Part shown: one piece after another, positions 45,510-62,007 of the stretch | How positions within the stretch are numbered: position 1 is the stretch's first letter | How the letters are laid out: the number at the start of each line of letters is the position of its first letter | Assembly (NCBI GenBank): GCA_963719405.1 | Contig: OY970381.1 | Coordinates: forward strand, 3,454,163 to 3,518,162 | Origin: an uncultured Acidobacteriaceae bacterium | GTDB lineage: Bacteria; Acidobacteriota; Terriglobia; Terriglobales; Acidobacteriaceae | Direction: 5' to 3' | Length of the DNA: 64,000 nt | Made by a program: the position numbers and the translations under genes | The notes under the pieces: model-generated | What the model saw: the letters and a program-made list of their open reading frames with translations, nothing else | Database searches by the model: none | Told to the model about the DNA's origin: nothing

Positions 45510-45586
45510 CGCTCTATCTTCGCTTTGCCTTCGCCACTTCTGCTATACGTGAAGTAGGGGAAAACGATGAGCCTGGTAGAGGTCGA

Positions 45587-46440: not shown

Positions 46441-46503
46441 GAGGGCGCGCCTTCCGCCTGCGGGGTTCGTTGGTTTGCGTCGATGCGCAGTGCATGAGCT
46501 GCT

Positions 46504-46704
46504 TTGAGGGCTGATGCTTCTGTCGGTACCGGAGCGAACTCGAAGCAAATCGAGCTTCTCGAGCTTGATGCGGCGGGCATACACGTTGCGGAGTACCTGA
46601 CGGTTCTCCCATCGCGGGAGGTCCTCGAGCGCAAGCTGCACGATGCAATTGCGACAGCCCGAGCGCGTTTTGAAGCCAAGGAACTTGAAGTGGACGCCCT
46701 ATGA
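46504..46704 (+). pseudogene. C-terminal ~60 codons of a second YhcG-type PDDEXK nuclease
   Basis: GANSKQIELLELDAAGIHVAEYLTVLPSREVLERKLHDAI aligns with the end of 20084..21168 (GKNTEQIELLELDASGIHVADYLTVLPSREDLQRKLHEA). Confidence 0.7.
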
Positions 46705-47633
46705 GCACCGCACTCGTTCACGTTCCGCTGCGGCCAGACGTGCCTACCGTCAACGGGCGGTTCGAGAACTTGAAGGACATAGTCCTCAAGGGTGTCACAT
46801 CCGTCCACTCCAAGCGCAACTATGGCAAGGCGCTCGACGAGCTGCAGGCCTTCTGTGTGGACCGGCAAGCGGTGCTGTCGCGTTCGCTGCTCCTCGACTT
46901 CCGTTCCGCGATGATCGAGCGCGAGCTGAGCCCATCGACGATCAACGTCAAGCTATCCGCGATCCGGAGCCTGGTGGGCGAAGCTCGGCGGGCAGGTGTT
47001 CTGGGCGCAGAAGACGCCTCGCAGATGACGGACATCCCCAATGTCGAGCAGCAGGGAACCCATCTCGGGAACTGGCTGACCCAGGAGCAGGCGAAAGAAT
47101 TGCTGGCGGTTCCTGATCGCTCCACGCTGAAAGGAAAGCGGGACTACGTGATCCTGTCGCTCTTGGTCGGCTGTGCGCTACGCAGAAGGGAACTGGCCTC
47201 CCTATATACAGAGGACATCCAGATGCGTGAGGGTCGCTGGGTCATCGCTGATCTCCGCGGGAAGGGTAATCGCATCAGAACCGTGGCAGTACCGGTCTGG
47301 GTCAAGCAAGGCGTGAACGCCTGGCTTATAGCCGCGAAGCTCGAAGAAGGACGGCTTCTACGGGCAGTCTCGAAGGGCGGAAAGTTGAAGGGAGAGGGTC
47401 TGAGCGACTGGGCGATCTGGTCGGTGGTCGAGCAGTCTGCCAAGCAGATCGGCATCGAACGGTTTGGTGCCCATGACCTCCGCCGCACGTGCGCCAAACT
47501 GTGCCGCAAGGCGGGCGGCGACCTCGAATAAATCAAGTTCCTCCTCGGGCACTCCTCCATCCAGACTACCGAACGGTATCTTGGCTCAGAACAGGAGATC
47601 GCCATCGCTGTAAACGATAACCTCGATTTATAG
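46701..47633 (+). pseudogene. Second copy of the XerD-like tyrosine recombinase, nonsense-mutated before the catalytic His/Tyr
   Basis: It has the same length (933 nt) and is collinear with 21165..22097. TAA at 47529-47531 replaces CAG, and the downstream frame still reads IKFLLGHSSIQTTERYLGSEQEIAIAVNDNL. Confidence 0.85.
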
Positions 47634-48060: not shown

Positions 48061-49080
48061 TCAGGTCACCTGGTGCGGGAGCAGCACCGGAGATCCAGTT
48101 ATGGTCTCATCTCTAACTGCCTGAAGCGCGTCCGCTGCTTGATCCAGCCGAAACGTTTTCATTGCAGGCGTGATCCCTATCTCTTCTGCAATTTTCAGGA
48201 AGTCCGTCGCATCCTGGCGCGTCATATTCGCGACGCTGCGTATCTGGCGCTCGTGCCACAAGAGCGAATCGTAATCAAAGGCTGGGACCAGATCCATGTG
48301 GATCGCGTTGATTGCAACGATTCCGCCCTTGTCCAGAGCTTTCAGTGCGGCCAACAGCACTGCGCCCGCTGGAGCGAACGTTACCGCGGCGTCCAGCCGG
48401 GCGGGCGGCTGATCGAGTGCGTCCCCAACCCATGTAGCACCGAGTTCACCAGCCTCCCGTCGATGTTGTGCACCGCGCGTTGAGACGTAGACCTCGCAAC
48501 CCCAGGCCTGAAGCACGGGCATCACGAGACGCGCTGATGCGCCAAATCCGAATAAGCCCACACGGTGCCCGGGTTTGACCCCCGCCAGCCGCACACTGCG
48601 AAAGCCGATCGTCCCAGCGCAAAGGAGAGGTGCAGTTGTCACTGGCGAGAGCTTACCTGAGAGGGGGATTAGAAAATCTGTCCTCGCAACCGCAAATTCG
48701 GCATACCCGCCGTCGCGCGTGTATCCCGTAAAGACCGCTTCATCGCACAGATTCTCCCTGCCGCTCCAGCAGAACTTGCATGTGCCATCGGCACCTCCCA
48801 TCCACGAGACGCCAACCAGGCTCCCCACCCGGAAATTACCAGATGTGCAAAGAACAACTTCACCCACGATCTGATGACCCAGGATCAAAGGCTCCTTTTT
48901 CAAGGGGAGATCGCCATCCACAATGTGAAGGTCTGTCCGGCAAACCCCACACGCAAGCACTTTCAGCAGAGATTCCCCTGCCCGGGGTTGCGGAATTGGC
49001 ACCTCCTCAATGCTCAGGTGTAACTCACCACCCGGTCCAGCCACTTGGAGCACCGCCGCCTGCATCGATGGTGGATTCAT
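48061..49080 (-). CDS. Zinc-dependent alcohol dehydrogenase family protein
   Basis: ACGVCRTDLHIVDG, GHQIVGEV, and the NAD fold GLFGFGASA; 339 aa. Confidence 0.9.
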   Translation of the reverse strand: MNPPSMQAAVLQVAGPGGELHLSIEEVPIPQPRAGESLLKVLACGVCRTDLHIVDGDLPLKKEPLILGHQIVGEVVLCTSGNFRVGSLVGVSWMGGADGTCKFCWSGRENLCDEAVFTGYTRDGGYAEFAVARTDFLIPLSGKLSPVTTAPLLCAGTIGFRSVRLAGVKPGHRVGLFGFGASARLVMPVLQAWGCEVYVSTRGAQHRREAGELGATWVGDALDQPPARLDAAVTFAPAGAVLLAALKALDKGGIVAINAIHMDLVPAFDYDSLLWHERQIRSVANMTRQDATDFLKIAEEIGITPAMKTFRLDQAADALQAVRDETITGSPVLLPHQVT

Positions 49081-49244
49081 TCTGGCAAGCCCGCCGGGTG
49101 ATCAAGGTAAGCCACGACTCTAATCGATGAGATGCAGTAAAGCGAAGCCAACGCTCATCTTCAAGTACGCAGACCTGGGTCGGCCTGGGTGTCATAAGTC
49201 TGCGTATCGGACATGAACGCGTGGGATGATATCGAAAGGCCTAA

Positions 49245-49272
49245 CATCCCGGCCAGGTTGCAGGCCGGGATG
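49245..49272 (-). terminator. GC-rich hairpin in the ADH leader (possible attenuator/terminator)
   Basis: CATCCCGGCC (49245-49254) pairs with GGCCGGGATG (49263-49272) across an 8-nt loop. On the minus strand it is followed by TTAGGCCTTTCG. Its function is not established. Confidence 0.3.
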
Positions 49273-49337
49273 AGATGTCACAGCAGTTAATCCTCGACTC
49301 GCAGCGAAGCGACATAACGATGGAGATTTCACTATCC

Positions 49338-49353
49338 CGTGATTGACTTCACA
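49338..49353. promoter_or_regulatory. Crp/Fnr-type palindrome CGTGA-TTGACT-TCACA
   Basis: One mismatch to TGTGA-N6-TCACA. It sits 2 bp from the next site, in the ADH/csp divergent intergenic region. Confidence 0.5.
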
Positions 49354-49355
49354 TT

Positions 49356-49371
49356 TGTGATAACGATCACA
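49356..49371. promoter_or_regulatory. Crp/Fnr-type palindrome TGTGA-TAACGA-TCACA (perfect half-sites)
   Basis: Read directly from the sequence; intergenic. Confidence 0.6.
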
Positions 49372-49689
49372 GCATTTACACGCCCGAAAAGCAATCATCT
49401 ATATGATCGATTAATCTCTTCAATACAGCTTGGTCACTAAGACCTGTTCCAGCACTGCACCCCTTAGATGTTATTTTCGAGCGTGAGCTGCTGGGAACAA
49501 GCTCATTTAGCTGTGGCCTGAGATGCTCTAGGAATTTCAAGCGGTACCGACCTGGCGCGAGCATGGACATATCCTGGATGAAACCATAGTCCCTACCCGA
49601 TCTATCGTTCTCCATCAAAATGAAGGAGGACCATCTAGAGACCCATTCGCAATGAGGGATCCAGCTAGAATCTTCAATGGAGGTGTCAT

Positions 49690-49944
49690 ATGTCCAACTA
49701 CAAGGGTACCGTGCTTTGGTTGAACGCATCGGGCGGATACGGCTTTCTTCGTCCCATCCACGGCGGAGATGTCTTCGTGCATTTCGACGAGGAGGAGCTT
49801 CGCCGCCTTCGGAACTTGAGAGAAGGCGATCCGGTCGAATTCGACATAAAGGACAGTGAGAGTGGACCGCAGGCCCAACATGTTGTGGCCGGCACACCGA
49901 GTCATCAAGAGCACAGCGGGGACACGGCTCAACGTCAAGAGTGA
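49690..49944 (+). CDS. Cold-shock-domain protein with a short acidic/polar C-terminal tail
   Basis: KGTVLWLNASGGYGFL...DVFVHF...GDPVEFDI...GPQAQHV is a CSD pattern. GGAGG sits 5 nt upstream of the ATG. Confidence 0.85.
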   Translation: MSNYKGTVLWLNASGGYGFLRPIHGGDVFVHFDEEELRRLRNLREGDPVEFDIKDSESGPQAQHVVAGTPSHQEHSGDTAQRQE

Positions 49945-49991
49945 CCTGACATGGCGTGGGAGATTTTGGGTGGATGTCGGAGCCGGACCTG

Positions 49992-50020
49992 CTTTTAGAT
50001 CCGAACAGAGGATCTAAAAG
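49992..50020 (+). terminator. Rho-independent terminator after csp
   Basis: CTTTTAGATCC (49992-50002) pairs with GGATCTAAAAG (50010-50020) across a 7-nt loop. GTCGGTTTT follows within a few nt. Confidence 0.6.
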
Positions 50021-50090
50021 AAGTCGGTTTTGAATCAACTCTGGCCGATTACAACGACACTAGCGCACCTCCGCAAGGGGAGACAAGACA

Positions 50091-50560
50091 ATGGCTCGAG
50101 TCGCAGTGTTGTCGGTCGTGCCCGTCGCGCAACGCTTTGTGAGGCACTCGGACACGCCTATGTAGCAGGGGTGTTGCAGGGGGCCACTCAGCGGAGCTCT
50201 TCGTTACCAGTAAGATGGCGTTTGATCCCATACTGCACGAGGGCTTCGCGCGCGTGCAGCCCCTCGAACCAGACCTCCACGAGCGCACGATTCCATATTG
50301 AGCGCGGATCATCTCGTGCTCATTTTGCTCTCTGGCTGGGCAGTATGCCGGCGATCCTCAAAGGCTTTCTTGAGCGAGTCTTCCAACCTGATTTGGTCCC
50401 GGCGTCGAAGGATGGTCGATCATTAAACTCCTCAAGGGAAAATCCGCTCGCATTGTCATCACCATGGGCATGCCGGCGGTTGTGTATCGTCTCTGGTTCC
50501 GGGCTCACGGGGTCGGGCCAAGTGGATCGCTAAGATGGAGCGGGTAGGCAGAGTCGCTCG
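50091..50560 (+). pseudogene. Flavodoxin-like-fold NAD(P)H dehydrogenase (quinone), multiply frameshifted
   Basis: Family blocks are spread over three frames: RRATLCEALGHAYVAGVLQG / MAFDPILHEGFARVQPLEPDL / FALWLGSMPAILKGFLERVFQP / LLKGKSARIVITMGMPAVVYRLWFRAH. Stops lie between the blocks. Confidence 0.7.
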
Positions 50561-50623
50561 TTGAGCTAGAGTTGGACGCCATCCCGACTAATTTGGGCAT
50601 CCCGCAGGAGCGGCATCTTCCAG

Positions 50624-51580
50624 TCAGGAGAGGTCATCCCGAACGGCCAAGATGCCGCAACGCGCTTCCCGGATGACGTGAGACAGCGTCGACCAAGGCG
50701 CGTGCTCTGCAAGGACCGACCGCGGGCGAAGACCGACGACAATTATTGTGGCGCCTTGGTCCCGAGCCACCCGCGAGATTGCCTCGGCGGGGGAGCCATG
50801 TAAAAGACGAGCTTCGGGGTTGTAGGAAAGGTTTGCGTCAGGTGGGATGAGTTCATAGAGCCGCTGTTGCAGGCGTTGCTCAATGGCCTCTACCTGGTAA
50901 CTAGGAGTGCGGGAATCCCGATATACGACATGTATGAGAGTCAGACGACCGTGCCCACGTTCAGCGGCGCGGGCTGCATAGAGCGCTGGCCGGGTTCCGG
51001 TAGTCAGCAGATCCGTGGCAAACACGACCGATCGCAAGGGATGTTGCACGACCTGGCAGTTAGGTCCGATCACGAGTACAGGAGTCTTGGTTTTGCGGAG
51101 CACCGTTTCTGCAACGGATCCGAGCACGAGTCGCTCCAGGCCGCTGGCACCGTGGGAGCCGACCACGATAAGATCTGACTTCTCTGTCTCTGCGGTTTGC
51201 AGAATGAGGTCGACGGGCTCGGCCAGGGCTACTGTGGTGCGGACCGTGACGAAGTCAGGAATGAACTCATTGGCAAGTATCTGATCAACACTTCTTTGCG
51301 CCGCGCGCACGTCGCGATCGAAGACATCAGGCGGGATGAACATCCCATCCACAGAGTTGACGGTCAGTGGGACCGCATGCACAACCCTGACCTTAGAACG
51401 ACAATAGCGAGCAAGGGCAAGGCCGGCGCTCAGAGCCCGCTGCCCGTGCACAGAGAAGTCCGTGGCGATCAGGATGCGTTTCCCTGCAAGCAGATCGGAC
51501 GCATCTTCTTCGCCGGCTTGGGGAGACACTGTTGGAGATTGGATCGGCGTCAGCAAACTCATAGACCACCTCGCTACCAA
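50624..51580 (-). CDS. Tandem universal stress protein (2 x UspA domain)
   Basis: KRILIATDFS...DLIVVGSHGASGLERLVLGSVAETVLRKTKTPVLVIG, repeated in the second half. Confidence 0.85.
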   Translation of the reverse strand: MVARWSMSLLTPIQSPTVSPQAGEEDASDLLAGKRILIATDFSVHGQRALSAGLALARYCRSKVRVVHAVPLTVNSVDGMFIPPDVFDRDVRAAQRSVDQILANEFIPDFVTVRTTVALAEPVDLILQTAETEKSDLIVVGSHGASGLERLVLGSVAETVLRKTKTPVLVIGPNCQVVQHPLRSVVFATDLLTTGTRPALYAARAAERGHGRLTLIHVVYRDSRTPSYQVEAIEQRLQQRLYELIPPDANLSYNPEARLLHGSPAEAISRVARDQGATIIVVGLRPRSVLAEHAPWSTLSHVIREARCGILAVRDDLS

Positions 51581-51629
51581 GGCCGCTTGGGGGATCCTCT
51601 GAAGGGTATAGCTGCGCCGATAGTCTTGC

Positions 51630-51645
51630 TGTGACAGGGGTCACA
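51630..51645. promoter_or_regulatory. Crp/Fnr-type palindrome TGTGA-CAGGGG-TCACA (perfect half-sites)
   Basis: Its centre is about 57 bp upstream of the USP start at 51580. Confidence 0.6.
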
Positions 51646-51775
51646 GGACCTGTCGGTACGGTGTCGAGACAAGTCCCTGATGCTTCCATTGCATCGGAAC
51701 GCATGTGGCAGGTGCTTATGCAATGCTGTTAAATCGTCTATTCACTCATCCCAGCGACTTGAGAGCGCGAACACG

Positions 51776-52516
51776 TTAGGCCGATAGCTTTTCCAGCAGC
51801 GCCGGTTGGAGCACCGTGAGTGCGATTCCATGAGTGGAGATGACCTTATCCTTACGGAATCGGCTCAAAGTGCGTGTTATCGTCTCCCGGCTAGTCCCCG
51901 TCATGGAGGCGAGTTCTTCGTGTGTGAGAGCCATCGAAATCGTGGAAGGCCGTCCGGGGAGACTCGATTCCCCTAGCCACCCCAGCAGCAATCGGGCTAG
52001 GCGACCTGCGGGCGCCGCGGTAAGTCCGAAAAGCTTGGCTTCCGCGAAAGCGCAGCGGTAATCGTCCGCCAGCGACTTAGCGGCCGCCATCGTTGTTTCC
52101 GAGTGTTGGGCCAACATGCTCATCAAAGCGGGCCTTCGCAGAACACGGATGCGACTACGATCGAGTACCTCGGCAGTGACTTCGTAGGGTGTTTCCGCGA
52201 TGGCTGCGCCGATCCCGAGAGCATCTCCGGGCTTGGCGATCCGCAGAATCATCGTCCTTCCTTCGCGAGAGGTGGTCGATAACTTCACTCTGCCGGAACA
52301 GACGACGAACACCGTGCTGCAACGATCTCCCTCATGGAAAAGGATGCTGCCAGACGGGTAGTCCATATCTATGGCGTTGGCGTCCAGAAAGGAGCGGGCC
52401 TCCTCGCTGAGAGCGCAGAAAGAGTGCTTTCCGAACTCGGGGCAGTTCTGGCAATTGGACATGACCGAATCTCCTTGGGCGTAGATACCCGACCTGTAGA
52501 GCAATCCGTGCGCCAA
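51776..52516 (-). CDS. Crp/Fnr-family transcriptional regulator
   Basis: cNMP-binding-like beta-roll (LFHEGDRCSTVFVVCSGRVKL...REGRTMIL) and C-terminal HTH LTHEELASMTGTSRETITRTLSRF. N-terminal Cys cluster NCQNCPEFGKHSFC. The start is possibly ATG 52462 (MSNCQ...). Confidence 0.85.
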   Translation of the reverse strand: MAHGLLYRSGIYAQGDSVMSNCQNCPEFGKHSFCALSEEARSFLDANAIDMDYPSGSILFHEGDRCSTVFVVCSGRVKLSTTSREGRTMILRIAKPGDALGIGAAIAETPYEVTAEVLDRSRIRVLRRPALMSMLAQHSETTMAAAKSLADDYRCAFAEAKLFGLTAAPAGRLARLLLGWLGESSLPGRPSTISMALTHEELASMTGTSRETITRTLSRFRKDKVISTHGIALTVLQPALLEKLSA

Positions 52517-52675
52517 CTCGCAAATCCTCCATTTTCTATGCCTCTTGAGTGTTTAGCAGATTGGGAATGCGGCTACCTGGGTGTAAAGACACAACGATGC
52601 GTGAAATGACCCACCGGAACCTGAGTGCGAGGTATGATTCTGCGCAGGCCCAACCCTTTTTCAAGGTAGGCGATT

Positions 52676-54031
52676 GTGGTCGAACCTCTTCCTATCCTCA
52701 TTGTCGACGACAGCCTCGGCAGCCTTGAGTTGCTGTCTACTGCTCTCAAGCGGACCGACGTCCGGGTTTACACGGCCGCCAGCCCATCGGAGGGGTTGGA
52801 ACTGATTCGAAAAATCCGTCCGCGTCTCGTCATTACGGATCTCGTGATGCCAGGGATGAGCGGGCTTGATCTGCTACAGCAGATCATGGCCTTTGATCCG
52901 TCCATCGATGTCGTTCTGATGACCGCCTATTACACGAGCGAAACGGCTGTGGAGGCCATTCAACTCGGAGCTTCTGACTATCTCGAGAAACCTCTGAAGA
53001 TGTCTGTTCTCCGCCATCGTGTCTCAGAGTTGGTTGCATCTGCCGAAGGCAGACTCAGGGCCTTTTCGGAATCGTCCTCAGACTCGCCTCCCTTCCAGTT
53101 TGAAGGCCTGATTACCCGCAGCCCTGCCATGGGCCGCCTGCTGGCGATGGTTCAGCGGGTCGCGCCTCACTTCCGATCCGTTCTCATACAGGGGCCGACC
53201 GGTGCAGGGAAGGACCTGGTGGCCAGGGCTCTTCACCAGGCCAGCGGAGTTCAAGGCAAGTTTGTTGTCCTGAATTGCTCCGCAATCGTCGAGACTTTAT
53301 TCGAAAGCGAGCTCTTTGGCCATGTGAGGGGGGCATTCACTGATGCCGATCGGGACAAATCTGGCTTCTTTGAACTTGCGGATCGAGGCACATTGTTCCT
53401 TGATGAGATAGGGGACATGCCTCTCTCAACGCAGGCGAAGCTACTTCGCGCGGTTGAAAATCAGGAAGTTCTTCCGGTTGGGGCTCTCAGTGCTCGGAAG
53501 GTAAACGTGCGGATCATCGCGGCTACGCATCGCGATCTGCGCAGCGCCTGCGCAGACCGAACGTTTAGAGATGATCTCTTCTACCGGCTTTCCATGGTGG
53601 AGTTGACCGTGCCCGCGCTAAAAGAACGGAAAGAGGATATCGCAGTGTTGGCTCGTCACTTCGTTCAGAGGTTCGCCTCGGAGTACAGCAAGCTTATAGA
53701 TGGAGTCACGCCAAGAGCTCTGATTGTGCTCCATGCATACCATTGGCCGGGTAACGTCCGAGAGTTGGAACACGTCGTTGGTCGAGCCTGCATGATGACG
53801 GAGAACCGGATGATCGATGTCGCGGATCTTCCGGCACATCTTCTATCCGAAACTTCGATTGAGGATGGTGGATTGTCACAGAAAGGCTCGCTTCTATCAC
53901 AGCAGGAACGAGAGATGGTTGAGCGTGCTTTGCGAGACTCGCACGGGAATCAGTCTGAGACCGCGCGGCGGTTGGGGATTGGGAGGGACGCTCTACGATA
54001 TAAGCTCAAGAAATATGAACTGATCGCCTGA
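52676..54031 (+). CDS. Sigma-54-dependent response regulator (NtrC family)
   Basis: Receiver domain, AAA+ domain (GPTGAGKDLVARALH, ESELFGHVRGAFTDA, RIIAAT), and a C-terminal Fis-type HTH (NQSETARRLGIGRDALRYKLKKY). Confidence 0.9.
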   Translation: MVEPLPILIVDDSLGSLELLSTALKRTDVRVYTAASPSEGLELIRKIRPRLVITDLVMPGMSGLDLLQQIMAFDPSIDVVLMTAYYTSETAVEAIQLGASDYLEKPLKMSVLRHRVSELVASAEGRLRAFSESSSDSPPFQFEGLITRSPAMGRLLAMVQRVAPHFRSVLIQGPTGAGKDLVARALHQASGVQGKFVVLNCSAIVETLFESELFGHVRGAFTDADRDKSGFFELADRGTLFLDEIGDMPLSTQAKLLRAVENQEVLPVGALSARKVNVRIIAATHRDLRSACADRTFRDDLFYRLSMVELTVPALKERKEDIAVLARHFVQRFASEYSKLIDGVTPRALIVLHAYHWPGNVRELEHVVGRACMMTENRMIDVADLPAHLLSETSIEDGGLSQKGSLLSQQEREMVERALRDSHGNQSETARRLGIGRDALRYKLKKYELIA

Positions 54032-54081
54032 CCGAAGAGCTCCGCATCGATGTGGCGTCATCCGGACCCGCTGGGTGACGC

Positions 54082-55794
54082 CTACTCCGGAGTTCTGTTT
54101 ACGCCTTGCGACTCGAATGTCGTTTCACTTTGTTGGAGGGTGAAGTGGAATTGACTCCCATTCCCTGGCTCACTTTCGACCCATACTGACCCGCCGTGCT
54201 TTTGTACCAACTGCTTACAGATTGCCAGCCCTAGCCCGGTTCCTTCTCGCACGCCCACTGAAGTGAATCCCACCTGGTAGAACTTGTCGAAGATCCTGGA
54301 TTGCTCCTCAGGCTGGATCCCGATCCCTGTGTCGGCGACCGTGAGCTGAATCCAGCCAATCTTAGGACTCTGTTGCACCCGGACGGCGACTTCGCCGCCA
54401 GGCTCCGTGAACTTCACTGCATTGCTTAGCAGGTTGTAGAAGATCTGACGGAGCCGCACGGGGTCAGCCCAGACATGAACTCCCGAAGGGTCCATACCTC
54501 GTATCGCGACCGACCGAGCGTCAGCATAGGGGCGAATCGAGGTTAGCGCCTCGCAGATTGCTTGATCAAGCAGAACCGATCCAGCGCGTAGCTTTAGTCC
54601 ACCGACGTCAAGATGACTGAAGTCGAGGAGATCGTTGATCATGCTGAGCAAATGCTGGGAGTCTCGACGGATGTGTTCCACGAAGCGCCTTTGTTGCGGG
54701 CTAAGCGGAGCGTCAGTCTCTTCGTGGAGCAGATCGGAAAAACCAATAATTGTGTGCAGCGGAGTTCGCAGTTCGTGACTAACGCTAGCGAGGAATTCGC
54801 TCTTTAGCCGGTTCAGGCGCTCGGCCTCATGGTGCCGCGCCTCCAGTTCACGGAGATAACCTTCCTGTAGTTCGCGAACCTCTTGCTCAGAGCGCCGCCG
54901 CTCGCTCACGTCCCGAATCACTGCTGTCACAAGCCCGCGACTAGCTGTCTTCACGGGGCTGAGGCTGATCTCGACGCAGACCTCAGAACCATTCTTTCTA
55001 CGCGCATAGAGATAGCTCTCTCCGTGGCCCATCGGTCGCGACATCGCAGACCCAGGGAGGGACTTGCGCTCTTCAGGAACTCTTTTTCGGCGCGCTTCAG
55101 GAACCAGTAGATCGATATTGCAAGTTAGCATCTCCTCGCGGCTGTATCCGAGCATCTCTTCGGCTGTGCGGTTCGCAAGGACCACGCTTCCATCGGCGGT
55201 CACCTGGAGAATTGCGTCCGGAGCATACTCAATCAGCTCTCGAAATTTCCGTTCGGCCAGCATCTCTGCGCGCGTTTGTGCCTCTTGAAGAAGCATCTCC
55301 TGAAGGTGCGCTTCGCTCGCGGCTAAAGCCTCCACAGCTGTGTTCCGTTCGGTAACATCACGGGCGATCTTCGCGATACCGACAATTCTTCCCTCGGCAT
55401 CAATGATCGGCGACATGCTGAGTGACACAAAGATCTTTCTCCCATCCTTATGCCTTCTGGCGGTCTCAAAGTGGTCAACGCGCTCTCCGCGCCTAAGCCT
55501 CTGAAGAAGGAGCTCAATCTTCCCCTCTTCGCCAGGCCACGCCAAACGGCGTACAGGGGTTCCTAGTACCTCGGCCGCCGTATAACCGAGAACACGAGTG
55601 GCGCCGGCGTTCCAACTGGTAATGATTCCGTCAAGGGACTCCCCGATGATCGCGTCGTCTGAGGATTCAACGATCGCTGCGAGCCACCGCTCCGCGTCCA
55701 TCTTCGCAGGGCTGCCCGCGGATGCCAACGTTGAACTTCCATCTCGGCAAGCCTCATCTTCCATGAGCACCTTCCCTTCTTCCCGGAAATACAA
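54082..55794 (-). CDS. Multi-PAS sensor histidine kinase
   Basis: Two PAS modules (IIGESLDGIITSWNAGA...; ILQVTADGSVVLANRTAEE...), H-box ASVSHELRTPLHTI, and G boxes DTGIGI and GTGLGLAICK. Confidence 0.9.
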   Translation of the reverse strand: MYFREEGKVLMEDEACRDGSSTLASAGSPAKMDAERWLAAIVESSDDAIIGESLDGIITSWNAGATRVLGYTAAEVLGTPVRRLAWPGEEGKIELLLQRLRRGERVDHFETARRHKDGRKIFVSLSMSPIIDAEGRIVGIAKIARDVTERNTAVEALAASEAHLQEMLLQEAQTRAEMLAERKFRELIEYAPDAILQVTADGSVVLANRTAEEMLGYSREEMLTCNIDLLVPEARRKRVPEERKSLPGSAMSRPMGHGESYLYARRKNGSEVCVEISLSPVKTASRGLVTAVIRDVSERRRSEQEVRELQEGYLRELEARHHEAERLNRLKSEFLASVSHELRTPLHTIIGFSDLLHEETDAPLSPQQRRFVEHIRRDSQHLLSMINDLLDFSHLDVGGLKLRAGSVLLDQAICEALTSIRPYADARSVAIRGMDPSGVHVWADPVRLRQIFYNLLSNAVKFTEPGGEVAVRVQQSPKIGWIQLTVADTGIGIQPEEQSRIFDKFYQVGFTSVGVREGTGLGLAICKQLVQKHGGSVWVESEPGNGSQFHFTLQQSETTFESQGVNRTPE

Positions 55795-56050
55795 GACTCG
55801 ATCCTGTTCACTCTCCGCGTGTGAGGTACGAACGAGCTAGCGATGCGGGAACCGGCCTGATGATCTTTCCTGAAGCCATTCCCTCCGTGCAACATGGAAT
55901 CGCGACCAAAGGTTACGCGCTTTTGGTGTGCAACGACCTTGTAGCCCTGAGCAGAACGCGGGATCGTGTTCCCTTTGTACACCGCATGAGGCTTCCGATC
56001 GAGCTTTAGAATCTGGTACACGTCCGATCTGCTCCAAGGAAAGAACACGC

Positions 56051-56980
56051 TCACACCCGGGAGGTCACTAGCAGGTGCGGGGCAACGGAGGCGTGGTTCA
56101 CCGTGAGCACAGGGCAGGGCGCCTGGGCGATGACTTGGGATGTGATGTTGTCAGAAAGGTGGGCGGCGATGGTTGTAGCTTGTTGTACTCCAAGGACGAT
56201 CACTGACGCCTTCTGACTTCGGGCATACGATACGATTCCTTGCGATACCTCATCCGCGTAGGTCACCATGAATACAGGAGCCTTCCCATAGGAGATCTGG
56301 CTCGTCACAACGCGTTTCAATGCTTCCAATATGATCTGCAGAATGATCTGACACTTGGGACCGCCTTCAACCGATGGCGGAAGGACGTGCAAGCAATGGA
56401 GAGGTCCATCTGTGAACACGGAGATCGCGCTAGCATACCTCACTGCCGAGTTGGTTGATGTTCCAAAGTCCGTCGCGAAGACAACGGGTCCTGTCCACAT
56501 CTGTTCCCCGATATCGTCAGCCGATCGTGGACCCACGATCAGAACCGGGCAACGCGCCTTTCGCAATAACGTCTCAGCAGTGGAGCCAGCGATCAGACGG
56601 CCTACGCCGTGCGGAGCACCCGTCCCCATAATGACCAGATCAACCTGTTGCGCCTCAATCGTGTCGAGAATGGCTGATGATGTTAGCCCGATGTCTATCG
56701 TTGACTCGCAGACGATTGCCTTGGACCGGGCAATCTGCACGAGATCGTCCAGCCTATCCAGCGTGGCATGGAGGACGGGATCGGAAGGGAAATGCGGTTC
56801 CCCAACTTGGGACGGCAAGGCTTCCGCATACCCGATCACATGCAAAATGAGAAGTTCTGCACGTAATCGTTCACAGATCCCCACCGCGCACCGGAAAGCG
56901 GCTTCTGAGTGCGGAGAGAGGTCTGTGGCGAAGAGTAGTTTGCGGAGTACGGGGACGGCCTGAGGCTCGACTGTCTGCAT
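56051..56980 (-). CDS. Tandem universal stress protein
   Basis: RKLLFATDLS...DLVIMGTGAPHGVGRLIAGSTAETLLRKARCPVLIVGP, plus a second Usp domain. Confidence 0.85.
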   Translation of the reverse strand: MQTVEPQAVPVLRKLLFATDLSPHSEAAFRCAVGICERLRAELLILHVIGYAEALPSQVGEPHFPSDPVLHATLDRLDDLVQIARSKAIVCESTIDIGLTSSAILDTIEAQQVDLVIMGTGAPHGVGRLIAGSTAETLLRKARCPVLIVGPRSADDIGEQMWTGPVVFATDFGTSTNSAVRYASAISVFTDGPLHCLHVLPPSVEGGPKCQIILQIILEALKRVVTSQISYGKAPVFMVTYADEVSQGIVSYARSQKASVIVLGVQQATTIAAHLSDNITSQVIAQAPCPVLTVNHASVAPHLLVTSRV

Positions 56981-57096
56981 GATCGCTGCTCGCTTTCTGG
57001 TCGGCGCCGCCTCAGACCCGCAGGCCTGAGGTACAGCAGTCCACTAGGCAATCTGTGCCCTACAGCTCAACCATATGTGAGCGTCGCGCACTGTCC

Positions 57097-57112
57097 TGTG
57101 ACGCAGATCACG
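57097..57112. promoter_or_regulatory. Crp/Fnr-type palindrome TGTGA-CGCAGA-TCACG
   Basis: One mismatch. It lies about 124 bp upstream of the USP start at 56980, in the intergenic region between two USP genes. Confidence 0.5.
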
Positions 57113-57186
57113 CTTGGTGCAACGAGAGTTCCGGAACACCCCCACGCCCTCCCAACGTTGCACAGATGGTCTCCAACAGGGAAGCA

Positions 57187-58092
57187 TTATGGGTGATCCT
57201 TGCCGCCAGACAAGATCGTTAGAACCGGGCACTCGGTCTCTGACAACACATGACCTACAACTCCGGCCAAAAGATGTGTTGAGAACCAGGTACCGCGCCT
57301 TGCACCCAGCACGATCAGGTCTGCCCCTGTCTTGCGTGCCATGGACAGCAGATGGGGAGCGACTTCGCCCTGCTCTACCCAGCACTCCGTACTGCATCGC
57401 TCGTATGCCGCTGGCGGAATCAGCTTCTCAAGTGCCGACTCAACCTGCAGCAGAAGCGTGAGGGTCTCGGAGATGCTGCTTCCATCAGGCCTCATTGTGT
57501 GGCAAAGGTAGATCTTTCCTTTTCCCTCCTGTGCAAATGAGAAAGCAACGCGCGCCTGGCGAGCAACATCGCCCTGAAGATCTGTCGCAAACAGAATGTT
57601 GTCGAAGACGAGTGGCCCACAGAGCTTCTTCACGTTTGGCCCGATAGTCAGGACCGGGCACTCCGACTGGCGGATCACGCCCTCCGCGACCGAGCCCTCG
57701 ATCGCCCTCTCAAAACCTCGTCGGGCGTGCGTTCCCAGAACAATGAGGTCCGTTCCTTCCTTCTTCGCAAGTTCCACTATCGCCTTTGCACGATCGTGAG
57801 ACTCGGGCACGTGAGTCTTCACCTTGAGTCCTTCCAGAGTCCATTCACTGGAAAGACGGTCCACATTGTCCCCGCTTCGGTGACGCAACTCATCCGCTGG
57901 TACACCGATAACCGCGCCATCTGCACGGGCCGAGAGGGAGAGGTCAACGACGCTGACGATCGTTACCACAGAAGAGAAGCGCTTTGCGGCCGCATGTGCG
58001 TAAGTCGCTGCAACGTCGGACGGGCGCGAGAAGTCTGTCGCGAAAGAGATGTTGTCGAGAGTGAGTCCGACCTGGTCAGCAATGATGGGCAT
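57187..58092 (-). CDS. Tandem universal stress protein
   Basis: ISFATDFS...DLIVLGTHARRGFERAIEGSVAEGVIRQSECPVLTIGP, plus a second domain ending in ECPVLTI. Confidence 0.85.
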   Translation of the reverse strand: MPIIADQVGLTLDNISFATDFSRPSDVAATYAHAAAKRFSSVVTIVSVVDLSLSARADGAVIGVPADELRHRSGDNVDRLSSEWTLEGLKVKTHVPESHDRAKAIVELAKKEGTDLIVLGTHARRGFERAIEGSVAEGVIRQSECPVLTIGPNVKKLCGPLVFDNILFATDLQGDVARQARVAFSFAQEGKGKIYLCHTMRPDGSSISETLTLLLQVESALEKLIPPAAYERCSTECWVEQGEVAPHLLSMARKTGADLIVLGARRGTWFSTHLLAGVVGHVLSETECPVLTILSGGKDHP

Positions 58093-58168
58093 GAGAGCTC
58101 TCCTGTATCAGCTACTCAACAAGTAACGCCGAGTTGCAGATCCTGCGGTCCCCGCGATCACTCTCCGC

Positions 58169-58184
58169 TGTGATCGGGATCACA
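58169..58184. promoter_or_regulatory. Crp/Fnr-type palindrome TGTGA-TCGGGA-TCACA (perfect half-sites)
   Basis: It is centred about 84 bp from both divergent starts (USP at 58092 and the membrane protein at 58261). Confidence 0.6.
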
Positions 58185-58260
58185 CATCCCCTGGGCCCGC
58201 GTCACGGTCGGGCCCCTTCACTAGCGGCACACTTATGAGTGTGACTGCAGGAGTGAGACG

Positions 58261-58866
58261 ATGAAACGGTACAACGCATTCTGGACGACGACAATGATCC
58301 GGGGAGCCCTCGCGATCTTTACGGGAAGCGCCATCATCGTCATGCCCGACATGGCACGAACAATCCTTCTGCTTCCATTTGCGCTGGCCTTCTCTATCCT
58401 TTGCCTTGTTGCCTACGGTGTTATCGATAGCGGCCTCGTGCTTGTCACGAGTTTCATGACCCCGCTGCGACCCGCTCGTTGGATTTTGCGAGCCCAGGGC
58501 GTGGCCGGGATCTCCCTCGGTGCGCTTCTGTTCTTCCTCTTGTATGAAAAGGTGCGTTTGCACCTGTTTTTTTATCTTATTGCTTTGCAGGCTCTGCTTA
58601 CCGCGTGGGCGGAGTTCGTTGTTGCGCGTCATACTTCGCAACGGCACGGCTCTCGCCTGAGTTATGCTGCGGCCGCCGCAGCAACGATTTGCGCCGCAGG
58701 ATATGCGGTCAGTGCCTGGTCCGCAGAACTGAGCCTGTCGCCGCATCAGATCGCATGGCTCATCTATGCGTATCTTGGCGCATTCGGCGTTGCGCAAACC
58801 GTGAACGCCGCGCGCATGCTTTATCTCGCCCGTCACCGCTCCACGAATATGGCTGAAGCTCACTAG
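58261..58866 (+). CDS. Polytopic membrane protein, HdeD/DUF308-like
   Basis: 201 aa, 6 predicted TM helices in a repeated pattern (IRGALAIFTGSAIIV...). The family assignment is by pattern only. Confidence 0.6.
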   Translation: MKRYNAFWTTTMIRGALAIFTGSAIIVMPDMARTILLLPFALAFSILCLVAYGVIDSGLVLVTSFMTPLRPARWILRAQGVAGISLGALLFFLLYEKVRLHLFFYLIALQALLTAWAEFVVARHTSQRHGSRLSYAAAAAATICAAGYAVSAWSAELSLSPHQIAWLIYAYLGAFGVAQTVNAARMLYLARHRSTNMAEAH

Positions 58867-58880
58867 CCTAAGGGGGACAC

Positions 58881-59081
58881 ATGTCAACCACGACAGTCGC
58901 TCCCTTCCAACAGGTCCCAGCCCGGCCTTGGCGTTCCGCGCCGCCCGTATGGCCGTCTGGGCGTCAACTTGTAAGAATTGCTGGCCGCTTTTCGGCGGCG
59001 GTGCGGCAGATCGGCTGGAGACTTCTGCAACTCTCTGTTTTCCTGGCGGTCGTGCTCTGGCCATGGGAGATAGCAGAATAA
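58881..59081 (+). CDS. Possible small membrane protein
   Basis: AAGGGGGA sits 5 nt upstream of ATG 58881. It is 66 aa with a C-terminal hydrophobic segment LLQLSVFLAVVLWPW. I recognise no homology. Confidence 0.3.
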   Translation: MSTTTVAPFQQVPARPWRSAPPVWPSGRQLVRIAGRFSAAVRQIGWRLLQLSVFLAVVLWPWEIAE

Positions 59082-59243
59082 CTATAGTGTGTGTGGCAGT
59101 TCAGAGGTTTTGGGCAGAGGGAAGACAGTTACGGATTTCCGACCTCCTCAAACGGCGCGTCCACCCGCCGGGTTCGTGATCGGCGAGTCTTTGCTGCCAT
59201 ACAGGCGAGTATCCCGGTTCTATCTTGATCGAACGCCACCCGT

Positions 59244-59846
59244 CTATGTTGCAGAAAGGCTCGGTCGTTTGTTAGTCGGACGCTCACGCGGGACCCTCTT
59301 GTACATGAGAAATCCGATAAGCTGAAATGCTGTTACTGCGGCGACGTAGCCCAGGAACCCAGCGGCAGCGGAATCGGATACTCGCGAAACCGCAATCAGT
59401 CCGAACCCCATAAGGATCTCGGATAATCCGCACACCTGTAGAGCCCTCTTTTGGGTTGGGTGGTGCCCCATATGCTGAGACGCACGTATCTGAGCTGCCC
59501 CAAAGAGAAGCGCATGGGGGGAAACAACCAGCGCAATCGTCCTGAGAGAGGAACTCTCGGTCATCGAAAGGTACAGGGCGCAAGCGATCGAAAGAGCACT
59601 AAGCACAAGGTAGCTCATGATTTCTCGCTTATGCCTCTTTTCGAACTGAAAAGCCACTACGACCTCAGCGCTCCCAATGGAGATGAGGCCTGTGGTGACT
59701 ACAACCTCCATCGCAAGAGCCACACTTCCCTCCATCCACACATCGGAGGCACGATGATCGAGATATACGAAAAGCAGAACGAACCCGATTAGTACAGCGG
59801 CCAGCATCGCAGCGAGCAATCTATGAAGCCGACGTTCACATCGCAT
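59244..59846 (-). CDS. Polytopic membrane protein (DUF308-like)
   Basis: 200 aa with 6 hydrophobic segments. It is divergent from the P-type ATPase. Confidence 0.55.
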   Translation of the reverse strand: MRCERRLHRLLAAMLAAVLIGFVLLFVYLDHRASDVWMEGSVALAMEVVVTTGLISIGSAEVVVAFQFEKRHKREIMSYLVLSALSIACALYLSMTESSSLRTIALVVSPHALLFGAAQIRASQHMGHHPTQKRALQVCGLSEILMGFGLIAVSRVSDSAAAGFLGYVAAVTAFQLIGFLMYKRVPRERPTNKRPSLSAT

Positions 59847-60009
59847 GAGTCAGTTCCTCGTTTGTGGAACTCTCGTAAGCTCTTCGACGCCGTTCCGCCA
59901 CACCGCTTTTTGGAGCAATGGTGACGGACATACATGAGATACGTGTGTGAACGCGATTGTTGTAAATCGCTCACTTGCTGAGTGTAGGCCTTGTTGTCGC
60001 ACAACCATT

Positions 60010-60025
60010 TGTGACAAGCATCACC
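60010..60025. promoter_or_regulatory. Crp/Fnr-type palindrome TGTGA-CAAGCA-TCACC
   Basis: One mismatch. Its centre is about 61 bp upstream of the ATPase GTG at 60079. Confidence 0.5.
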
Positions 60026-60078: not shown

Positions 60079-62007
60079 GTGCATTTGACGCAGCGCAATA
60101 TGTTCCGCAAATCGGTAGAGAGGCCAGTGACCCACATCGCCGCTGCGGCATTCATTGCTGCGGGCATGCTGGGCGCTATGGGTTTGCGGGTCCTTGTGCA
60201 CAATCCACAGATCTTGAACGTTGTCCTGCTCACTGCCATTGCTGGTGCCAGCATTCCGTTAGTGATCTCGCTCATCCAGCAGGTCCTCCGGCGCAATTTC
60301 AGCGTTGACATCCTCGCTTTCATGTCAATCATCACGTCATTGGTTCTTGGCCAATATTGGGTCGCGGCGCTCGTTGTCTTGATGCTCTCCGGCGGACAGG
60401 CGCTCGAAGCATATGCCACGCGGCGTGCGTCATCCGTGCTCAGCGCTCTCGCCAAAAGAATGCCTCAAACTGTCCATAAAACCGGTGAGGGGATTGTTGA
60501 CGTAGCCATAAGCGCTATCAAAGTTGGAGACGAATTGCTGATCTATCCGCATGAGATTTGCCCAGTGGACGGAGTGGTTGTGAGCGGGGAAGGGAGCATG
60601 GATGAATCCTACTTGACGGGGGAACCTTTTCTGGTAGCAAAGGCACCGGGAACAACCGTCCTCTCGGGTGCGATCAACGGTGACGTCGCACTCACAATTC
60701 GCGCGACCATGATTGCCAGCGACTCGCGCTACGCAAAGATTGTCAAAGTGCTCCATGCTTCGGAAGAGAACCGGCCGCAGATCAGACGGCTCGGAGATAG
60801 GCTCGGATCCTGGTATACGCCAATCGCTATCGCGATCGCGCTGGCAAGCTGGTTCCTGAGCGGTCACTCAGAGCGATTCCTGGCGGTCTTGGTGATTGCG
60901 ACACCATGTCCCCTTTTGATCTCGATCCCTGTCGCAATCATTGGCGCCATTTCAGTCAGCGCAAAGCTGGGCATTATCGTCAAAGACCCCTCAATCCTCG
61001 AAAAGATTGAGACCTGCCGTGTGCTGATCGTTGATAAGACAGGGACTCTCACCTACGGGAGACCTAGCCTAACCTCAATTGACTGCTTCGGAGGCACCTC
61101 TCGGAGCAAAGCTCTTCAATACGCCGCAAGTCTGGAACGCTACTCGAAGCATCCGCTCGCGAGTGCTGTCATTGCCGCAGCGGATAAGGAGGGATTGCTG
61201 CTCCTCAAGGTCGAAGATGTCTCCGAGCTCCCGGGCGCGGGCCTGAGGGGTGACGTAGCAGGAAAGCTCGTAACAATAACGGGACGTGGCAAACTCGCCA
61301 CCGAGATCCTGTCGGCCATGCCGCCAGTTGCACCCGGCCTCGAATGTGTTTTGCTTGTCGACGAGGAGCTTGCAGGGGTAATCCACTTCGAGGATGAGCC
61401 ACGTCATGAGAGCAAGTCCTTTCTTGGGCACCTGAATTCGATGCACCAAATCTCGCGAGTCATCCTCCTTTCTGGTGATCGTCCCGCGGAGGTCGCATCG
61501 TTTGCGTCAGGGATGGGTATCACGGAAGCCTACGGCGGCAAGAGTCCTGAACAGAAGGTTGAGTTCGTCCGCGAGACCACGTTGAAGGGCCGAACCCTTT
61601 ACCTCGGAGACGGCATCAACGACGCTCCCGCAATGATGGCAGCCACTGCGGGCATCGCGCTGGGTGTCAACAGCGACATCACTTCGGAGGCGGCCGGTGC
61701 GGTGATCCTTCAGTCTTCGCTCGTCAGCGTTGACAAGTTGATACACGTAGGTCGACGTATGCGTCGGATCGCTCTGACCAGCGCCATCGGCGGCATGAGC
61801 CTCAGCCTCCTTGGGATGGCTGCTGCGTCATTGGGCTTCCTGAGCCCGATTGGTGGAGCCATCGCGCAGGAGGTCATTGACCTGCTCTCCATCCTCAACT
61901 CACTGCGGGTGATACTTCCTACGGGTTCCTTAACCGATTTCGAACCGGGTGCTCCCGCGCCCACCGGGGCGTCCCCTGATATCCCGAGATCCTCCGGGCG
62001 GAACTGA
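60079..62007 (+). CDS. P1B-type (heavy-metal) P-type ATPase with a TPCP transmembrane motif and no N-terminal metal-binding domain
   Basis: TGEP actuator motif (LTGEPFLV), VIATPCPLLIS, phosphorylation site DKTGTLT, and hinge GDGINDAPAM. The start could instead be ATG 60100. Confidence 0.9.
   Translation: MHLTQRNMFRKSVERPVTHIAAAAFIAAGMLGAMGLRVLVHNPQILNVVLLTAIAGASIPLVISLIQQVLRRNFSVDILAFMSIITSLVLGQYWVAALVVLMLSGGQALEAYATRRASSVLSALAKRMPQTVHKTGEGIVDVAISAIKVGDELLIYPHEICPVDGVVVSGEGSMDESYLTGEPFLVAKAPGTTVLSGAINGDVALTIRATMIASDSRYAKIVKVLHASEENRPQIRRLGDRLGSWYTPIAIAIALASWFLSGHSERFLAVLVIATPCPLLISIPVAIIGAISVSAKLGIIVKDPSILEKIETCRVLIVDKTGTLTYGRPSLTSIDCFGGTSRSKALQYAASLERYSKHPLASAVIAAADKEGLLLLKVEDVSELPGAGLRGDVAGKLVTITGRGKLATEILSAMPPVAPGLECVLLVDEELAGVIHFEDEPRHESKSFLGHLNSMHQISRVILLSGDRPAEVASFASGMGITEAYGGKSPEQKVEFVRETTLKGRTLYLGDGINDAPAMMAATAGIALGVNSDITSEAAGAVILQSSLVSVDKLIHVGRRMRRIALTSAIGGMSLSLLGMAAASLGFLSPIGGAIAQEVIDLLSILNSLRVILPTGSLTDFEPGAPAPTGASPDIPRSSGRN

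Follow-up and report, generated by a model that had tools for sequence, protein, structure and literature searches.

A probable local CRP/FNR-type regulon marked by TGTGA-N6-TCACA palindromes in an uncultured Acidobacteriaceae bacterium

The Acidobacteriaceae are among the most abundant soil bacteria and, although formally aerobes, must survive frequent anoxia in soil aggregates. In a 64-kb stretch of the genome of an uncultured member of this family (contig OY970381.1, positions 3,454,163 to 3,518,162; hereafter the window, from whose first letter all positions are counted), six copies of the CRP-type palindrome TGTGA-N6-TCACA had been noticed by eye within ~11 kb around the gene of a CRP/FNR-family regulator. 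They were taken to outline a compact regulon comprising three genes for tandem universal stress proteins (USPs), a 'DUF308-like' gene, a heavy-metal ATPase gene and the divergent genes of an alcohol dehydrogenase (ADH) and a cold-shock protein (csp). This locus raises the question whether the palindromes are indeed operators of that regulator, which of the genes they would serve, and to what signal the regulator would respond.

To judge from the sequence comparisons described below, the six palindromes are quite probably operators of the CRP/FNR dimer encoded at 51776-52462 and would form a local stress regulon, made up of the three tandem USPs and two small membrane proteins and probably joined by the P1B ATPase and either the ADH or csp. 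This layout is a conserved one within the Acidobacteriaceae, where it probably controls the low-oxygen survival response. In the literature that we searched, no CRP/FNR regulon of an acidobacterium is described; the one proposed here, previously undescribed, is a conventional local regulon of the CRP/FNR type, and the basic finding is one that specialists on these regulators would expect. Interest is added by a distinct subfamily of putative sensors that combine four cysteines with the DNA specificity of CRP, and by the conserved σ54/two-component layer upstream of the regulator gene.

The palindromes in the window and around homologous regulators

A pattern scan for TGTGA-N6-TCACA over the whole window, controlled by 100 dinucleotide-preserving shuffles, reproduced the positions, sequences and mismatches of all six boxes (Table 1), which are referred to below by their first position. 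The three perfect copies compare with 0.03 expected, and none of the 100 shuffles reached three, so that the original prediction was right in holding the cluster to be non-random. When up to one mismatch is tolerated, eight copies match, where 1.48 would be expected, namely the same six boxes and two further copies at 238-253 and 4228-4243, which lie inside open reading frames (ORFs), have low scores and are compatible with chance. A position weight matrix (PWM) built from 187 intergenic sites, all of them from other genomes, with the window excluded, ranked the six boxes as the top six of the 64 kb, all of them intergenic as had been claimed (58169, 21.4 bits; 49356, 20.0; 51630, 19.8; 57097, 16.2; 60010, 15.2; 49338, 12.8). 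The top score in the shuffled sequences averaged 11.7 bits with a maximum of 16.8, and every window match below the top six falls within this shuffle range; all of these lie in coding sequences except those at 4974, 40229 and 40328, which score at most 4.4 bits. The sites follow the extended consensus TGTGAY-N4-RTCACA. As to whether the regulon is 'compact', 64 kb is too short a span to judge.

The same motif recurs around homologs of the regulator, which belongs to a large family (55-62% identity). A homolog scan with one genome per species yielded 80 regulator loci, nearly all labelled Acidobacteriaceae or other Acidobacteriota and sampled from Granulicella, Terriglobus, Edaphobacter, Acidipila, Silvibacterium and many metagenome-assembled genomes; for counting, a duplicate locus (L026) was left out, giving 79 loci and 1.39 Mb. 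In this DNA the perfect palindrome occurs 82 times (85 when L026 is included) against 0.84 expected from composition. This enrichment is specific to the half-site, as each of the other 29 half-site permutations has at most three copies, and to the spacing, as spacings of 4, 5, 7 and 8 give 0-1 copies; the FNR box TTGAT-N4-ATCAA, with two copies in the 1.39 Mb, is not enriched. The boxes are densest in the few kb nearest to the regulator gene. With L026 included, 73 of the 85 perfect sites lie in the 16% of DNA left intergenic by a crude ORF caller, and the motif is thus far from equally frequent in coding DNA; equal frequency would have spoken against the original prediction.

Conservation upstream of orthologous genes, on which that prediction likewise depended, was also found. 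When a gene start at most 300 nt from a site was taken as a target, 54 tandem USP genes in 34 loci were near boxes, as were the starts of the regulator and its divergent σ54 activator in about 36 loci. The membrane-protein gene 58261-58866 has ten homologs in the other loci, each preceded by a box at a distance of 73.5-81.5 nt (84.5 in the window). In L042 a perfect box stands 149 nt before an ATPase homolog, and in L041 a box is found 55.5 nt upstream of a homolog of the second membrane-protein gene, 59244-59846. Further genes within this distance in the relatives encode a CheY-like single-domain response regulator, multihaem cytochromes c, a small Cys-rich protein, BON-domain proteins, phosphate acetyl/butyryltransferase (Pta), phosphoketolase, nitronate monooxygenase and cytochrome bd subunit I. 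The order regulator, box, next gene recurs in seven loci (L031, L035, L041, L046, L051, L063 and L064), the gene downstream of the box being a USP homolog in L064 and that of the small Cys-rich protein in L046 and L051.

Two observations on the sampled loci may be added. In Terriglobus roseus DSM 18391 (NC_018014.1), the loci L025 (2596111-2616788) and L026 (3056630-3077307), each of 20,678 bp, are 100% identical, from which we conclude that a stretch of at least 20.7 kb, with the whole regulator/USP/kinase cluster, was recently duplicated in this genome. In a clade of ten loci (L071-L080) whose regulators share 35-37% identity with that of the window, the C-x2-C-x8-C motif and the R-E-T-V-T-R helix described below are kept, but neither a perfect intergenic box within ±10 kb nor a σ54 promoter is found; boxes with one mismatch stand in front of multihaem cytochrome c genes in these loci.

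At class II promoters of the CRP/FNR superfamily, as known for E. coli CRP and FNR, the operator is centred at −41.5 and the −10 element occupies −12 to −7. Of the 193 site-gene pairs, 45 have a TANNNT hexamer that starts +29.5 or +30.5 from the site centre, where other offsets yield about one such pair apiece, and a dimer bound at such a site would therefore sit at about −41.5, in the class II position. The hexamer is present towards the CheY-like response regulator in 18 of 22 pairs, the small Cys-rich protein in 5 of 6, the multihaem cytochromes in 12 of 18 and the USPs in 11 of 61; it is absent towards the σ54 activator (0/27), the regulator (0/44) and the 58261-type gene (0/12). The CheY-like gene (~135 aa) is preceded in relatives (e.g. 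L005:7935-7950, L015:7957-7972, L018:7954-7969) by a perfect box 3 nt past the stop codon of a PAS kinase gene, with a −10 TAAGCT at +29.5; the window lacks this gene, its kinase and activator genes standing tail to tail at a distance of only 50 nt.

In the window, the −10 elements TACCCT (51608→51603) and TATGGT (57075→57070) start exactly +29.5 from the centres of boxes 51630 and 57097, towards USP1 and USP2, respectively, so that class II activation of these two genes is a well-supported prediction; we infer it also for the remaining sites, the ADH/csp pair apart. Of these other sites, box 60010 has a hexamer at a borderline +31.5 (TACACT, 59986→59981) on the side of the minus-strand membrane-protein gene, while no comparable −10 faces the ATPase gene, and box 58169 has no TANNNT at +29.5 in either direction. 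The geometry is not of class II at 49356 and 49338 either: from box 49356, TATGAT stands at +38.5 on the csp side (49402-49407) and no −10 on the ADH side, and by eye TATGTC stands at +29.5 from box 49338 towards ADH. A σ54-like match beside box 57097 (57118-57133), with two mismatches and no conservation, was treated as chance.

The regulator, its σ54 promoter and the genes of the cluster

The regulator lies in the middle of the cluster and is of the Crp/Fnr family, as had been read, with matches to PF00027 (67.8 bits), PF13545 (68.8) and PF00325 (35.7), all above cut-offs; the public gene call, though, starts it at ATG 52462 and gives 228 aa, in place of the 246-aa ORF 51776-52516 of the original prediction. 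NCBIfam has no equivalog for it (CRP, 52 bits against a cut-off of 266; Fnr, 38.9 against 228), and its profile matches in the PDB are generic relatives only, namely CRP, FNR, NtcA and DNR structures with a best E-value of ~1e-21, E. coli CRP and Mycobacterium CRP being among the nearest solved structures. The recognition helix reads S-R-E-T-I-T-R in the window protein and S/T-R-E-T-[VI]-T-R, without variation, across the family; its R-E…R corresponds to R180-E181…R185 of E. coli CRP, and a CRP-type R-E-x-x-x-R helix fits the TGTGA half-sites. In an alignment to M. tuberculosis CRP, the Glu of GEL is replaced by a hydrophobic residue and the Arg of PRTSS by Tyr in the family consensus, and the family-invariant residues in the cAMP phosphate-binding segment are E-V-T. 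Since this Glu and Arg, which we take to be the cAMP-contacting residues (E72 and R82/S83 in E. coli numbering), are absent, cAMP is an unlikely ligand.

The protein thus shares with CRP in the strict sense the R-E-x-x-x-R helix and the TGTGA-N6-TCACA operator, and lacks its cAMP residues; from FNR in the strict sense it differs in cysteine pattern, DNA box and helix, that of FNR being E--SR. Four cysteines, C4, C7 and C16 (C-x2-C-x8-C) and C55 in the β-roll, are each found in 96-98% of 83 homologs of 35-100% identity, and a cysteine near the FNR-C122 region, present in 51% of the family members, is absent from the window protein. By these residues the regulator belongs neither with the cAMP-CRPs nor with the canonical FNRs; it is probably a metal or Fe-S/redox sensor, the conservation of the four cysteines being what speaks for a metal centre.

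The regulator gene has a σ54-type −24/−12 promoter of the form GG-N10-GC. In the clade with 48-60% identity, 37 of the 42 scored loci have the same element, placed between −47 and −57; its scores there are 12-15, the 99th percentile of the shuffles being 13. Loci at 46% identity or less lack it, and most of these are also without a neighbouring σ54 activator. Upstream of it, 16-bp units of the form TGsGy-N6-rsCsCA, candidate binding sites of a bacterial enhancer-binding protein (bEBP), occur in 41 of 41 intergenic regions between the regulator and response regulator genes, against a background of 0.25 per 200 bp; they are mostly paired ~19-23 bp apart at about −120 to −180 from the ATG, and the two in the window lie at about −117 and −97 from the predicted transcription start. 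A 'degenerate CRP box' in this spacer (CGTGAAATGACCCACC, 52597-52612) was rejected, being one of these two conserved units. The regulator gene thus has all the parts of a σ54/bEBP promoter, i.e. the GG-N10-GC element, an upstream activator sequence (UAS) and a divergently encoded Sigma54_activat protein, with one caveat: the activator carries GAFTDA (53330-53347; codon GAT at 53342-53344), where 35 of 35 orthologs have G[A/S]FTGA. With the identical change, G266D, E. coli NorR becomes constitutively active and is still able to form open complexes, whereas NtrC G219K cannot activate (PMC2941729). Across the 80 loci the σ54 activator is found together with the regulator in 43 and the PAS kinase in 39. 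From this canonical enhancer-dependent layout, the PAS kinase and the NtrC-type activator most likely control the synthesis of the regulator, in what would be a two-tier cascade.

Some 35 relatives have a CRP-type box, aGTGAyTGAAATCACA, downstream of the activator sites and ahead of the σ54 promoter. It is centred exactly 33.5 nt upstream of the −12 GC, at about −46.5, which at σ54 promoters is the usual binding site of integration host factor (IHF). The location of the box at the IHF position suggests a feedback of the regulator on its own σ54 promoter in these relatives. In the window this box is decayed, the best PWM score in the region being below zero.

Table 1. Boxes, promoter elements and genes of the palindrome cluster in the window
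Feature	Position	Strand	Remarks
Zn-dependent alcohol dehydrogenase (possible target)	48061..49080	−	Pfam ADH_N / ADH_zinc_N
Weak CRP-type box CGTGATTGACTTCACA	49338..49353	.	ADH/csp spacer; one mismatch; centre 18 bp from centre of perfect box 49356
Perfect box TGTGATAACGATCACA	49356..49371	.	609-nt ADH/csp spacer
Cold-shock-domain protein csp (possible target)	49690..49944	+	Pfam CSD
Tandem USP1 (predicted target)	50624..51562	−	Pfam Usp x2; 312-aa public gene call, ATG 51562
Perfect box TGTGACAGGGGTCACA	51630..51645	.	Between regulator stop codon and USP1
CRP/FNR-family regulator, 228 aa	51776..52462	−	Pfam cNMP_binding + HTH_Crp_2 + Crp
σ54-type −24/−12 promoter of regulator gene TGGCGCACGGATTGCT	52500..52515	−	16-mer starts 53 nt upstream of ATG (52515→52500)
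Decayed autoregulatory box AGGCATAGAAAATGGA	52528..52543	−	52543→52528
Two candidate activator (bEBP) units	52578..52613		52598-52613(−) TGGGTCATTTCACGCA and 52578-52593(+) TGGGTGTAAAGACACA; −151 and −131 from ATG
NtrC-type σ54 activator, receiver + AAA+ + HTH_8	52676..54031	+	Pfam; divergent from regulator
PAS-PAS histidine kinase	54082..55701	−	Pfam; 539-aa public form
Tandem USP2 (predicted target)	56051..56980	−	Pfam Usp x2; box 57097
Box TGTGACGCAGATCACG	57097..57112	.	Upstream of USP2; one mismatch
Tandem USP3 (predicted target)	57187..58092	−	Pfam Usp x2; box 58169
Perfect box TGTGATCGGGATCACA	58169..58184	.	Centre 84.5 nt from both divergent ATGs (USP3 58092; membrane protein 58261)
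Conserved multi-pass membrane protein (predicted target)	58261..58866	+	No Pfam family
Second membrane protein (likely target of box 60010)	59244..59846	−	DUF308 sub-threshold, 20.5 bits vs cut-off 25
Box TGTGACAAGCATCACC	60010..60025	.	Between membrane-protein gene 59244-59846(−) and P1B ATPase; one mismatch
P1B-type heavy-metal ATPase, TPCP (possible target)	60079..62007	+	TIGR01525 478.7 bits vs cut-off 346
GlgX	62049..63965	−

Among the gene identities given earlier, Pfam and NCBIfam bear out those of the three tandem-USP genes, the Zn-dependent ADH, csp, the TPCP P1B ATPase and the Crp/Fnr regulator. The 'DUF308-like' label of 58261-58866 had to be dropped, as this protein has no Pfam match at E≤0.05; DUF308/HdeD (PF03729) is not reached by the second membrane protein either, and the two are barely similar to each other (E=0.011). 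The ATPase of 642 aa contains 'ATPCPLL', i.e. the TPCP transmembrane motif, which we take to be the mark of the little-studied P1B-5 subgroup, and is without an N-terminal metal-binding domain. Two spacers of the cluster are unusually long, that with the tandem boxes (49081-49689, 609 nt) and that at 49945-50623 (~680 nt). In the former, no Rfam RNA family was found, and scans for small ORFs, promoters and terminators gave nothing convincing; the latter holds only a doubtful ORF (50030-50533) with a sub-threshold match to a flavodoxin-like fold.

Elsewhere in the window, the Rfam model of the group II catalytic intron domain matches 35210-35287 (+) with 54.3 bits (gathering score, 40), beside the ORFs 34549-35250 and 35724-36251; this is probably a mobile intron. 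The region 44973-47531, immediately upstream of the cluster, may be the edge of an integrated element; base composition has no break there. It encodes, at 46701-47531, a tyrosine recombinase of the Xer type whose scores are far below the Xer cut-offs, at 45464-45991 a UmuD-like autoproteolytic subunit (149 bits; cut-off, 110) and at 44973-45371 a short HKD/PLD-like ORF, recognised by eye. Two divergent tRNA genes lie at 12220-12293 (−) and 12581-12654 (+), and the GC skew, strongly positive between ~2 and 12 kb, is flat beyond.

The operator reading and its alternatives

On the reading that we prefer, the regulator dimer would contact TGTGA through the R-E-T-x-T-R helix and, where it sits at about −41.5, as predicted for USP1 and USP2, would activate the σ70-RNA polymerase in the class II manner. 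It would not bind cAMP, and its signal would be O2 or the redox state, sensed by a metal or Fe-S centre with C-x2-C-x8-C and C55 as ligands. Its own gene would be transcribed from the σ54 promoter with two activator sites, presumably driven by the divergently encoded NtrC-type response regulator together with the PAS kinase. The targets, i.e. USPs, ADH and a cation ATPase, and in the relatives Pta, phosphoketolase, cytochrome bd and nitronate monooxygenase, point to low-oxygen, fermentative persistence as the function. In Acidobacterium capsulatum at nanomolar O2, a sensor kinase gene was induced 84-fold, usp genes up to 56-fold and adhP 15-fold, and the authors proposed no regulator or motif (PMC11636273).

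A number of points weigh against this reading. Box 49338 is unconvincing alone, as its score, not significant by itself, is below the shuffle maximum and it departs from the consensus at positions 1 and 11, the latter being R in ~95% of the sites. A canonical class II −10 accompanies only two of the six window sites, and is missing even at the perfect box 58169, as it is at the boxes before the 58261-type gene in the relatives. The direction served by box 60010 is ambiguous, the better −10 facing the minus-strand membrane-protein gene and not the ATPase. ADH is not a conserved target, boxes lying upstream of only one of its eight homologs elsewhere, and no csp gene was found near the regulator in the other loci among the 80. 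The decayed autoregulatory box and the GAFTDA of the activator suggest that in this genome the upstream layer may be rewired, impaired or non-working; both the regulator ORF and all six target boxes are intact. The cysteine arrangement is unlike that of every characterised Fe-S FNR, and cluster binding and O2 sensing are therefore conjectural. Cross-regulation by paralogs with the same helix is possible, since such paralogs co-occur with the regulator in L003, L007 and L038. Finally, the window regulon is linked to the induction in A. capsulatum by analogy only, and no homolog of that species is among the top regulator matches.

The alternative that survives best accepts the regulon as described but takes the signal to be something other than O2 limitation, such as nitric oxide, a metal, thiol/disulfide state or stationary-phase stress, with repression possible at the 49338/49356 tandem and at 58169. 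The departure of the cysteines from the canonical FNR pattern, the metal ATPase within the cluster and the geometry at several window sites that is not of class II would all suit it, and according to reviews USPs respond to many stresses. Yet the targets in the relatives (cytochrome bd, Pta, phosphoketolase, ADH and multihaem cytochromes) are typical of low O2 and fermentation, USP, kinase and ADH genes are those induced in A. capsulatum, and the gene content closely parallels that of the low-oxygen-activated lxa locus discussed below; a different signal is thus a possibility to be kept in mind, though an unlikely one.

A more elaborate version of the operator reading, which we offer tentatively and consider doubtful, is a two-sensor circuit specific to the Acidobacteriaceae. 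Here the PAS kinase and the σ54 activator would drive a new class of four-cysteine CRP/FNR sensor, and in some 35 relatives this sensor would bind its own σ54 promoter at −46.5 and bend the DNA like IHF, acting as a co-activator that closes a positive feedback loop. The loss of the box in the window and the GAFTDA, a natural equivalent of NorR-G266D, would then be a compensatory shift to constitutive synthesis of the regulator, with O2 control left to the cysteine centre alone. We know of no description of DNA-bending co-activation by FNR-type proteins at their own σ54 promoter.

It is distinctly unlikely that the boxes are bound mainly by another CRP/FNR paralog encoded elsewhere, with the same helix and responsive to cAMP or another ligand, and that the adjacent regulator is a target or minor player. 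Same-helix second paralogs, of the R-E-T-V-T-R type, do exist inside L003, L007 and L038, and helix and local sites are not strictly coupled, because family members at 35-37% identity keep the helix without a perfect intergenic box nearby. The 64-kb window, however, encodes no other CRP/FNR paralog, the box density in the 79 loci is highest close to the regulator gene, and both the order of regulator, box and next gene and the box at the regulator's own promoter are conserved.

Very improbable is the view that the palindromes are activator sequences of the adjacent NtrC-type σ54 activator, the targets being σ54-dependent. The UAS of NifA has the pattern TGT-N10-ACA, which the motif formally fits; the activator gene is co-located in the 43 loci mentioned, and in the relatives a box lies upstream of the σ54 promoter at the regulator gene. 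But 20 perfect intergenic boxes are found in the 37 loci without an activator, −24/−12 elements are few in the intergenic DNA of the sampled loci beyond the regulator promoter, with none at a labelled USP or DUF308 target, the −10 at +29.5 is of σ70 type, and a separate conserved pair of TGsGy-N6-rsCsCA units already occupies the canonical UAS position of the only σ54 promoter.

A chance origin of the six matches, or their derivation from a repeated mobile or REP-like element without regulatory role, would fit only the weak score of box 49338 and is effectively refuted by the shuffles, by the ranking with the PWM from other genomes, by the half-site- and spacing-specific conservation over the 79 loci, and by a repeat search around the six sites, which found unrelated flanks and spacers and no larger repeat and therefore rules out a REP/MITE-type origin.

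Significance and comparison with known systems

If the preferred reading of the boxes as operators of the adjacent regulator is right, it provides a concrete regulator-operator pair with the site TGTGAY-N4-RTCACA, a conserved target set and a σ54/two-component layer in dozens of genomes. The low-oxygen persistence programme of a poorly tractable phylum would thereby be opened to DNA affinity purification sequencing (DAP-seq), reporter and biochemical tests, and a subfamily with a distinct cysteine motif would be added to the CRP/FNR sensors.

Among characterised proteins, E. coli CRP and Mycobacterium CRP have the identical DNA site TGTGA-N6-TCACA, the R-E…R helix and the class II geometry; they differ in that the cAMP-contacting Glu and Arg are not conserved in the window family, which has instead four conserved cysteines and a local, not a global, regulon. 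Bacillus subtilis Fnr is an Fe-S O2 sensor that binds TGTGA-N6-TCACA, with a C-terminal cluster held by three cysteines and an aspartate, and is not under σ54 control. It thus resembles the window regulator in combining Fe-S-type O2 sensing (putative here) with a CRP-type box, whereas three N-terminal cysteines and one in the β-roll stand in place of its C-terminal cluster and σ54 control is found only in the window system. E. coli FNR and P. aeruginosa Anr share the CRP/FNR fold, an N-terminal cysteine cluster, the lack of a cAMP pocket, class II activation from about −41.5 and USP targets. Their cysteines, however, follow C-x2-C-x5-C plus C122 at the start of the dimerisation helix, against C-x2-C-x8-C plus C55 in the β-roll; their helix is E--SR, against R-E-T-x-T-R; and the FNR box is not enriched at loci of the window type. 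The control of USP genes in P. aeruginosa by Anr was described by Trunk et al. 2010, as cited by Sass et al. (PMC3721108).

The arrangement of the upstream layer recalls the rhizobial cascade from FixL-FixJ/FxkR to FixK (PMC7888657), in which a PAS kinase and a response regulator likewise switch on a CRP/FNR regulator, which then controls a low-O2 regulon through palindromes. The window response regulator differs in being a σ54-dependent AAA+ activator that acts on a −24/−12 promoter, and the window regulator in its putative sensor cysteines, of which FixK has none, and in its CRP-type box.

The closest likeness in gene content is with the lxa locus of Burkholderia cenocepacia, a cluster of 50 genes, six of them for USPs, with 17 intergenic FNR/Anr-like inverted repeats (Sass et al. 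2013, PMC3721108); a Zn-ADH, Pta, a cation ATPase, Anr-like CRP-family regulators and a two-component system are also encoded there. Both are single clusters with many intergenic CRP/FNR-type repeats that combine USPs, a Zn-ADH, a cation ATPase, a CRP-family regulator and a two-component system; Pta and nitronate monooxygenase are targets in both, in the relatives in the case of the window; and both hosts are aerobes that must persist without O2. They belong to different phyla, though, and the lxa motif shares TGA-N6-TCA with the Anr/FNR boxes, whereas the window box is the CRP-type TGTGA-N6-TCACA. The lxa locus has 50 genes against ~11 kb here, the window regulator has its own cysteine pattern and a σ54 promoter, and the induction of lxa has been measured, whereas the window regulon is predicted from sequence. 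In M. tuberculosis, an obligate aerobe, hypoxia induces many tandem USPs and a cation ATPase through DosR (PMC3721108, PMC2914252); DosR is a response regulator of the NarL type with an unrelated DNA motif, so that this likeness is functional only. If the signal is O2 or the redox state, the regulon would be the acidobacterial counterpart of the Anr/FNR-controlled USP genes, the lxa locus and the DosR regulon.

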